Of a stretch of 64,000 nucleotides of DNA, positions 25,244 to 26,282 are shown one piece after another. Each line of letters opens with the position of its first letter. Position 1 is the first letter of the stretch. A program made the position numbers and the translations under genes. This stretch comes from Gammaproteobacteria bacterium (GTDB taxonomy: Bacteria > Pseudomonadota > Gammaproteobacteria > Eutrophobiales > Eutrophobiaceae), in the NCBI GenBank assembly GCA_965221695.1, contig OZ244905.1:192001-256000 (forward strand). The letters run 5' to 3'. The notes under the pieces were generated by a model. The model searched no databases and was not told the origin of the DNA. It worked only from the letters and a program-made list of their open reading frames with translations.

Positions 25244-26002
25244 AGACTATGACCGATTGTAGTTACGTAAATAAACCTGGCTATATGCTGGAAACTCCGG
25301 TGTATCCTCCAGTACTCGTCTCAATTTGAGGCAGTGACAATCTGTGAGGTGCGGACAATCAGCAGGAAAGATTCCTAAATTGGAGAAGGTAAATGGCAAT
25401 TGATATCAAACAGGTTCCGGAGCGAATCGGCTACTACTTGGCAGGATTCGCAGATGGAGAAGGGAGCTTTAATGTATCATTTCGTAAACGTAAGGACTAC
25501 GCGATGCCTTGGAAGGTATCACTTTGTTTTAATGTGTCACAACGAGATAAAGTAATACTCACTTTGTTCAAGAAGCATCTCAAATGTGGGACATTACGTA
25601 GTAGAACAGATGGAGTCTGGTATTACGAAGTGAATAATATCAATGCTATTGATGAAAATGTGATTCCCTTTTTTAACAGATTTGGATTTTTGTCTGCTAA
25701 GAAAAAAAGAGATTTCTCTAAATTCAAGCAGTTAGCAAAAATAATTAAGGAAGGCAAGCACTTGAATAAAACAGGTATCCACACCATTATTGATATCCGA
25801 AAGGAGATGAACGATGGAGGTGTTGGAAAACGTAAGTATTCCGACGAAGCGATACTAAAATTCTTCAATTGAAGAAAATCCTCAGAGACTATACGCCAGG
25901 CAGTACTTGTTGCTGAAGATATAGTCCGATCTGTATAGCAATATACAGGGGTTATTTTCAATAATCCGCAATGTGAATGTATCAAACATTGTTAACACAA
26001 TG
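25244..26002 (+). mobile_element. Group I intron at 23S site L1917 (759 nt) with homing endonuclease
   Basis: Follows U1917; IGS GTAGTTAC pairs with exon GTAACTAT (U.G at splice site); P/Q/R/S elements TGCTGGAAA, AATCAGCAGG, TCAGAGACTA, AAGATATAGTCC; terminal G. Confidence 0.93.
25393..25872 (+). CDS. Single-motif LAGLIDADG homing endonuclease (I-CreI-like)
   Basis: YYLAGFADGEGSF, VSQ, FLSAKKKRDF; lies between the Q and R elements (P6 loop) with its own RBS. Confidence 0.92.
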   Translation: MAIDIKQVPERIGYYLAGFADGEGSFNVSFRKRKDYAMPWKVSLCFNVSQRDKVILTLFKKHLKCGTLRSRTDGVWYYEVNNINAIDENVIPFFNRFGFLSAKKKRDFSKFKQLAKIIKEGKHLNKTGIHTIIDIRKEMNDGGVGKRKYSDEAILKFFN

Positions 26003-26016
26003 AACGGTCCTAAGGT

Positions 26017-26282
26017 AGGAAGCGCTGCCTTAGTAAAATCCGACTAATTGCTGGAAAATCCGAGCATCCTCCAGTACTCGTCATGTCAATGACAGTAACA
26101 ATCTGTGAGGTGCGGACAATCAGCAGGAAAGACTGACAAATAGTTGTCAGAATCCTCAGAGACTACACGCCGGACATCTGTATTCTGCAGATGAAGATAT
26201 AGTCCCATCTGCAAGGCGACTTGCAGGGATAGTCAGTAAACTATCCGCCTAATCATTCCTTCATATATTAGGTAAGACATCG
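26017..26282 (+). mobile_element. ORF-less group I intron at 23S site L1931 (266 nt)
   Basis: Follows U1931; IGS GCCTTAG pairs with exon CTAAGGT; complete P/Q/R/S core; terminal G before AGCGAAATTCC. Confidence 0.92.

Follow-up and report, generated by a model that had tools for sequence, protein, structure and literature searches.

The window, i.e., the whole analyzed stretch of 64,000 nucleotides of a gammaproteobacterial genome, contains an rRNA operon in which Rfam models identified a 16S rRNA gene (20643-22189), two tRNAs, a 23S rRNA gene (23311-27255), and a 5S rRNA gene (27339-27453). The 23S rRNA gene matched model RF02541 over model positions 1-2925 with a score of 2770.2 bits, and cmscan aligned it as a full-length bacterial LSU rRNA with two inserts looped out in the domain IV region. 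Its length of 3,945 nt is due to the presence of these two inserts, both of which are group I introns. All features described here are located on the forward strand.

Intron 1 (25244-26002) is 759 nt long and carries an open reading frame in its P6 loop, while intron 2 (26017-26282) is 266 nt long and has no ORF. Both introns end with G, at positions 26002 and 26282, respectively. They are separated by a micro-exon of 14 nt, AACGGTCCTAAGGT (26003-26016). The 5' exon ends at position 25243 (...GGCCGTAACTAT; ...GGCGGCCGTAACTAT), and its terminal stretch GTAACTAT (25236-25243) represents the 5' strand of P1 of intron 1. The 3' exon starts at position 26283 with AGCGAAATTCC (AGCGAAATTCCTTGTCGG). 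The coordinates of the two introns and of the 14-nt exon, as given in a preliminary description of this DNA, were exactly reproduced from the sequence.

The insertion sites were numbered by alignment to the annotated E. coli 23S rRNA gene (NC_011741.1, 4020120-4023023). Position 26283 of the window aligns with base 4022051 of the E. coli record, which is 23S position 1932. The letters of E. coli at this site are ...taactat up to position 1917, aacggtcctaaggt at positions 1918-1931, and agcg... thereafter. The micro-exon is thus equivalent to E. coli 1918-1931, and the inserts are therefore located at L1917 and L1931, with intron 1 inserted directly after position 1917 and intron 2 directly after position 1931. 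Alignment to E. coli thereby confirmed the two sites proposed previously.

The last base of the 5' exon corresponds to U1917 in the loop of helix 69, which is an essential intersubunit bridge. In the structure line of the Rfam LSU model, GGCCGU is paired with ACGGUC around the first insertion; intron 1 therefore interrupts the loop of this helix, which includes just the first half of the micro-exon, with nucleotides 2-7 forming its 3' strand. The micro-exon had been described as a whole as the 3' strand of this helix, which holds for its first 7 nt, whereas the second half is outside the stem.

The genome consists of one contig of 3,539,060 bases (3.54 Mb), and the 3' part of the 23S rRNA gene was found at one place only. 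The intron pair is likewise present in a single copy, and these two introns are the only matches to the group I intron model RF00028 in the genome. Since there is no second 23S rRNA gene, every ribosome of this organism would depend on the excision of both inserts.

Both inserts were compared with RF00028, for which the gathering score is 50. Intron 2 reached 88.9 bits (E 2.2e-21), above this score, while intron 1 was matched by its 3' half alone with 38.3 bits, below it. Intron 1 as a whole remained under the cut-off because its core is split by the 480-nt ORF. The ORF-less L1917 introns of two congeners scored 56.9 and 55.7 bits on the same model. When the parts of intron 1 outside the ORF (149 nt on the 5' side and 130 nt on the 3' side) were aligned to intron 2, the mean column identity was 82% and 80% over 149 and 143 aligned columns, respectively, with long identical stretches through P4, P5, P7, and P9.

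Conservation of the fold was evaluated in two alignments, where a change was counted as compensatory if both sides of a pair were altered and the pair was kept; the P7 pseudoknot was excluded from the pair counts. Compensatory changes, which support the conserved core helices P3-P9, were observed in 31 of 56 predicted pairs among 19 L1931 introns, including that of the window, and in 31 of 57 predicted pairs among 20 L1917 introns (that of the window and 19 without an ORF). Intron 1 fits the L1917 consensus fold with all helices aligned and the ORF placed in the P6 loop, one P6 pair being a C-A mismatch. The Rfam scores, the site numbering, and the comparative structure together bear out the earlier statement that two complete group I introns are present. 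As for their subgroup, introns at L1917 and L1931 were labelled IB4 in a passage of a paper on a diatom plastid (PMC11019260), and IC1-like without P2 in one by Haugen et al. (2007, PMC1995217).

The internal guide sequence of intron 1, GTAGTTAC (25259-25266), forms the 3' strand of P1 and pairs with GTAACTAT, with a U.G pair at the 5' splice site. The P1 pairs, including this U.G, were kept in 20 of 20 L1917 introns, and the guide motif G[TG]AGTT was found in 77 of 78. Directly 5' of the guide sequence lies the proposed P10 strand, GACCGATT (25251-25258), whose partner is AACGGTC, the first half of the micro-exon. The complementarity of these strands, previously taken as an uninterrupted 7-nt match, proved to be nearly so: GACCG/CGGTC forms 5 bp, followed by a bulged A and then by 2 bp of TT/AA. 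Of 78 L1917 introns, 54 had GACC or ACCG within the 12 nt preceding the guide sequence, and 35 had the exact GACCG.

In intron 2, the internal guide sequence GCCTTAG (26027-26033) forms the 3' strand of P1 with CTAAGGT, the second half of the micro-exon. This pairing is perfect, again with U.G at the splice site, exactly as the preliminary description had it, and all 7 pairs including the U.G were kept in 19 of 19 L1931 introns. The proposed P10 strand of intron 2, CGCT (26023-26026), pairs with AGCG at the start of the 3' exon (26283-26286; E. coli A1932 onward). Among 78 L1931 introns, the four letters before the guide sequence were CGCT in 19 cases, AGCT in 16, CGTT in 14, and TGCT in 6. 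As the exon never varies, the invariance of P1 represents conservation and not covariation. The split of the micro-exon into 7 nt for P10 of intron 1 and 7 nt for P1 of intron 2 is real in the sequence, with the bulged A in P10.

The ORF of intron 1 (25393-25872) encodes a LAGLIDADG homing endonuclease of 159 aa. It matched Pfam family PF00961 (LAGLIDADG_1) with E 4.9e-19 and 69.5 bits (cut-off 23.1), in one stretch covering residues 16-114 and with the motif LAGFADGEG. One domain and 159 aa place the protein in the single-motif, homodimer type of LAGLIDADG_1 enzymes (single domain, about 160-180 aa). The nearest solved structures were enzymes of the I-OnuI/I-SmaMI type (best 4lq0, E 1.4e-32), while single-domain enzymes of rRNA introns matched the ORF more weakly (3e54, E 2.5e-16). 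The ORF should be annotated as a homing endonuclease and not as a cellular gene. Where the P6 insertion ends on its 3' side, a perfect 16-nt palindrome, TTCTTCAATTGAAGAA (25861-25876), overlaps the stop codon of the ORF; judged by its letters, it may form a local hairpin closing the P6 insert.

Taken together, both inserts are read as related group I introns of an ordinary kind that occupy L1917 and L1931, two well-known homing sites in rDNA; they would be removed by guanosine-initiated splicing, and the endonuclease of intron 1 would spread that intron by homing. We assign this joint reading a probability of about 0.88. In intron 1, GTAGTTAC would form P1 with the 5' exon and GACCG(A)TT would form P10 with the first half of the micro-exon; in intron 2, GCCTTAG would form P1 with the second half of the micro-exon and CGCT would form P10 with the next exon. 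Both introns would be excised from the precursor by the usual two-step reaction initiated by guanosine, giving the ligated exons ...GTAACTAT, AACGGTCCTAAGGT, and AGCGAAAT in this order. Excision of both would be required, as there is no second 23S rRNA gene and helix 69 needs ACGGUC joined to GGCCGU. The endonuclease of intron 1 would cut L1917 sites lacking an intron, by which the intron would spread.

Sequencing runs provided support for the assembly. In run X1, a 786-nt contig was identical to positions 25342-26127 and a 207-nt contig to positions 26103-26309, both with 0 differences. In run X2, which belongs to a different study, contigs covering 25342-25905 and 25876-26120 were also recovered with 0 differences. 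The contigs of the two studies thus span the junctions between intron 1, the micro-exon, and intron 2; the assembly itself may derive from one of the two. Both runs look like DNA (the kind of library is not given), because the depth of the introns was similar to that of the organism-specific exons.

A different picture was obtained for run X3. Here, a 324-nt contig corresponded to positions 26003-26312 (micro-exon, intron 2, and 3' exon) with 0 differences, and its first 14 letters did not match intron 1. Intron 1 was uncovered in this run, and intron 2 had a depth of about 10 compared to 36-111 for organism-specific exon contigs. The contig may be derived either from an allele or strain with the L1931 intron only, or, if X3 is RNA, from a precursor from which intron 1 had already been removed.

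The X3 contig, having intron 2 and the micro-exon without a matching intron 1, is what would speak for the double arrangement being an assembly artefact or a chimera of two strains with one intron each, and on its basis there may be alleles or RNA forms that contain intron 2 only. Against an artefact, however, the 786-nt contig of X1 and the contigs of X2 span both introns with 0 differences in two separate studies, and the same arrangement was encountered in two congeners as well as in over 100 further genomes. We therefore regard this explanation as extremely improbable.

It was also considered that the inserts are not spliced at all, and are either retained in the rRNA or excised in the manner of intervening sequences, leaving a fragmented 23S rRNA. 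In favor of this explanation, no ligated exons assignable to this organism were found in the sequencing runs examined. In the metatranscriptome X5, the introns were not covered; intron-less joints occurred there, which come from other organisms, because they carry other letters. On the other hand, U.G splice sites, a terminal G, guides matching the exons, and covarying helices would be unexpected for passive spacers, and excision without ligation would release a 14-nt piece with half of helix 69. Retention or fragmentation consequently appears very unlikely, though less so than an artefact of assembly, and removal of both introns by splicing is the reading followed below.

The distribution of the pair was determined at three levels: genus, class, and bacteria as a whole. 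By rRNA comparison, the host is a gammaproteobacterium of an uncultured type and not, as was first considered, a relative of Legionella or Coxiella; its best 16S identity among the named loci was 92.3%, to a Thiotrichaceae MAG. Among 22 genomes of the same genus, two (G004 and G015) carried the same L1917+L1931 pair, with 90% identity over the 1,301-nt query and 87-90% for the introns by themselves. Three (G001, G008, and G014) carried an L1917 intron together with a second insert, about 740 nt long, that follows position 1951, one (G009) an L1917 intron only, and one (G018) a 1951 insert only, these 1951 inserts being placed solely by match coordinates. The exons were contiguous in 10 further congeners, and 5 were unmatched. 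At the gathering threshold, RF00028 gave no match at the 1951 insert of G008 (locus L006, about 2030-2773). By 23S exons, G008 is the closest congener (98.8%), and it carries a different intron set. The distribution within the genus is thus patchy, as expected of mobile introns.

In an even sample of 400 other genomes of the class, a denominator that includes genomes whose 23S rRNA gene is possibly unassembled, an L1917-type junction was observed in 5, an L1931-type junction in 7, and both at one locus in 4. Accordingly, four of the five L1917 carriers also had L1931, and four of the seven L1931 carriers also had L1917.

A wider scan covered one genome per species for 185,579 species, with a pattern consisting of G, the micro-exon, 2-30 nt, and GYYTTRG, and yielded at least 120 loci. 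Among the matches listed, the L1931 guide sequence stood in its usual context in 114 of 120 loci, i.e., in at least 114 species, and both outer exon borders were inside the stored locus in at least 75. The at least 114 loci belong to 16 named phyla, three loci being without a phylum name, and include Pseudomonadota (54, of which 50 are titled Gammaproteobacteria), Dormiibacterota (13), Actinomycetota (13), Acidobacteriota (9), Chloroflexota (6), and others.

The remaining 6 of the 120 listed loci, without the L1931 guide context, were set aside as chance matches or other types of insert; in four of them (L059, L068, L110, and L118) the exon borders were absent as well. Three of these (L059, L068, and L110) share a different sequence after the micro-exon, of the ...AATTGTCGCTTTGG... 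type, and show no exon border within 3.5 kb. These loci may contain a different type of insert at L1931 or may be matches by chance.

The occurrence of the pair in at least 114 species of 16 named phyla corrects the premise behind the preliminary description. There, no L1917+L1931 pair was known to have been described in one proteobacterial gene, and it was added that finding the pair to be already common would refute this. The pair is neither rare nor undescribed: it occurs in at least 54 Pseudomonadota loci, and pairs at these sites have been published. The accompanying remark that group I introns are rare in bacterial 23S rRNA genes is likewise dated, and the proposal made there that ribosome maturation would be controlled by the order of splicing is speculative. 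The pair is much commoner in bacteria than older literature implies, and such pairs provide a large natural data set on closely spaced introns that share exon sequence and may spread together. For the present genome, the value of the result is one of annotation only.

The layout of the window, with about 760 nt carrying a LAGLIDADG ORF, the 14-nt exon, and about 270 nt without an ORF, was shared by the two congeners with the pair (G004 and G015), by two Candidatus Foliamicus sp. MAGs (L097 and L124), and by Gammaproteobacteria bacterium L037. Compared to these five, intron 1 of the window was 81-88% identical and intron 2 was 87-90% identical. Between the window and the Foliamicus MAGs, the flanking 23S exons differ by about 13% and the intron cores by 8-12%. 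As the cores are closer than the flanking exons, transfer of both introns between the lineages is suggested.

The relationship between the introns at the two sites was evaluated using a tree of 152 cores and 159 columns, obtained by a quick search and having many weak branches. Changes of the site label on this tree numbered 11, compared to a mean of 51 for shuffled labels, and at least 3 were forced by well-supported branches. In 73 of 78 cases, the core nearest to that of an L1917 intron came from another intron at L1917, and in 3 of 78 it was that of the partner intron. The introns of the window group with same-site introns of congeners and of the Foliamicus MAGs, the L1931 set having an SH-aLRT support of 95. 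The two cores of the window are 75% identical to each other, and 96% identical to the same-site intron of a congener. The nearest-core counts and the tree therefore indicate that the two sites are occupied by distinct, related lineages and not by freshly duplicated copies.

Concerted evolution, by gene conversion or recent duplication, was considered as a general rule for such pairs and rejected, the own partner being nearest in only 3 of 78 cases. Separately, in the MAGs L092 (Natronospirales) and L057 (Gammaproteobacteria), the genome's own L1917 and L1931 cores group together, with an SH-aLRT of 98 for L092. This grouping suggests a recent switch of site or gene conversion between neighbouring introns in these two genomes.

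A more tentative proposal, which we hold possible but would not favor, is that the L1917/L1931 pair behaves as one mobile cassette, in which the ORF-less partner (here intron 2) hitchhikes by co-conversion. Given the distance of only 14 bp between the two sites, a double-strand break made by the endonuclease of either partner would be repaired with co-conversion of the neighbouring intron. A single endonuclease gene would then suffice for the spread and the maintenance of both introns. Of 78 pairs, 30 had a long intron 1 only (at least 500 nt) and 25 a long intron 2 only; both introns were long in 4 pairs, and neither was in 19. When the longest ORF of each long intron was examined (62 introns, that of the window excluded), LAGLIDADG_1 was found in 56, several of them partial, and 6 were unmatched. 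Across 63 genomes, the distances of the two introns were correlated beyond the distance of the flanking exons (partial Mantel r 0.20, with 1 of 999 permutations as high), a result that is only suggestive in view of the linear control and of the non-independence of related genomes. The counts of pairs with one long partner, the share of LAGLIDADG_1, the co-occurrence in the class sample, and this correlation fit the cassette but do not prove it. A paper stating such behaviour for this pair was not found in a limited literature search that did not extend to supplements.

Several long introns (loci L022, L023, L033, L041, L027, L070, and L089) contained only short or partial LAGLIDADG frames, one of them located at L1917 in a Coxiella endosymbiont of Ornithodoros amblus. 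The state of these frames suggests decaying endonuclease genes.

The same pair counts bear on whether the ribozymes act autonomously. At least one of the two introns could need a protein helper. This could be a chaperone of the host, or the LAGLIDADG protein of intron 1 could serve as a maturase, in which case the ORF-less intron 2 would depend on the product of intron 1. Such a role has a precedent in Thermotoga neapolitana, where maturase-like activity is ascribed by a review (PMC3984707) to the LAGLIDADG protein of a 23S intron. Moreover, the two cores are about 80% identical, so that one protein could in principle bind both, and 55 of 78 pairs have a single long partner. However, in 19 of 78 pairs both introns are too short to contain an ORF, so that persistence of the family does not require an intron-encoded protein, and both cores of the window keep the full conserved set of helices. 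Dependence on a helper is thus considered unlikely, though clearly less remote than retention of the inserts, and self-contained group I ribozymes remain the preferred reading.

For comparison with known systems, the literature search returned no papers on Foliamicus or on Cbu.L1917/Cbu.L1951, and nothing relevant on 23S introns of Legionella. Coxiella burnetii has two group I introns, at L1917 and L1951, in its single 23S rRNA gene. As in the window, two introns are present in a single gammaproteobacterial 23S rRNA gene, one of them at L1917. In contrast to the window, the second site is 1951 and not 1931, there is no 14-nt micro-exon, and the subgroups are reported as different. The 1951 inserts of the congeners G001, G008, G014, and G018 are at the same site as the L1951 intron of C. 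burnetii. Of the two Coxiella introns, that at L1951 appears in Table 1 of PMC1995217, and that at L1917 is cited as IB2 in PMC11019260.

In 23S rRNA genes of CPR bacteria, insertions bearing LAGLIDADG_1 cluster at 1917, 1931, 1952, 2593, and other positions, often with several per gene (Tsurumaki et al. 2024, J Bacteriol, PMC11270868). That survey covers CPR bacteria and RefSeq references only; the relevant passages of its main text do not describe the pair as such, and its supplements may list co-occurrence.

The same two sites are occupied within one LSU gene in the plastid rrl of Navicula vanseea, where the introns at L1917 and L1931 are called IB4 (PhytoKeys 2024, PMC11019260). This system resembles the window in having LAGLIDADG genes and, according to the portions of that paper describing the introns, differs from it in that the gene is a plastid one and an ORF is present in both introns.

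A close published counterpart in arrangement was described in Synechococcus sp. C9, where the single LSU gene sequenced contains introns at L1917, L1931, and L2593 (Haugen et al. 2007, BMC Evol Biol 7:159, PMC1995217). [quoted passage not shown] The differences concern the host, which is cyanobacterial in the case of Synechococcus sp. C9 and gammaproteobacterial in the case of the window, as well as the gene content: endonuclease genes are present in all three introns of Synechococcus sp. C9, whereas intron 2 of the window has no ORF and an L2593 intron is absent. The L1917 ORF is 181 aa long in Synechococcus sp. C9 and runs into the ribozyme core, while that of the window is 159 aa long and ends before P7.
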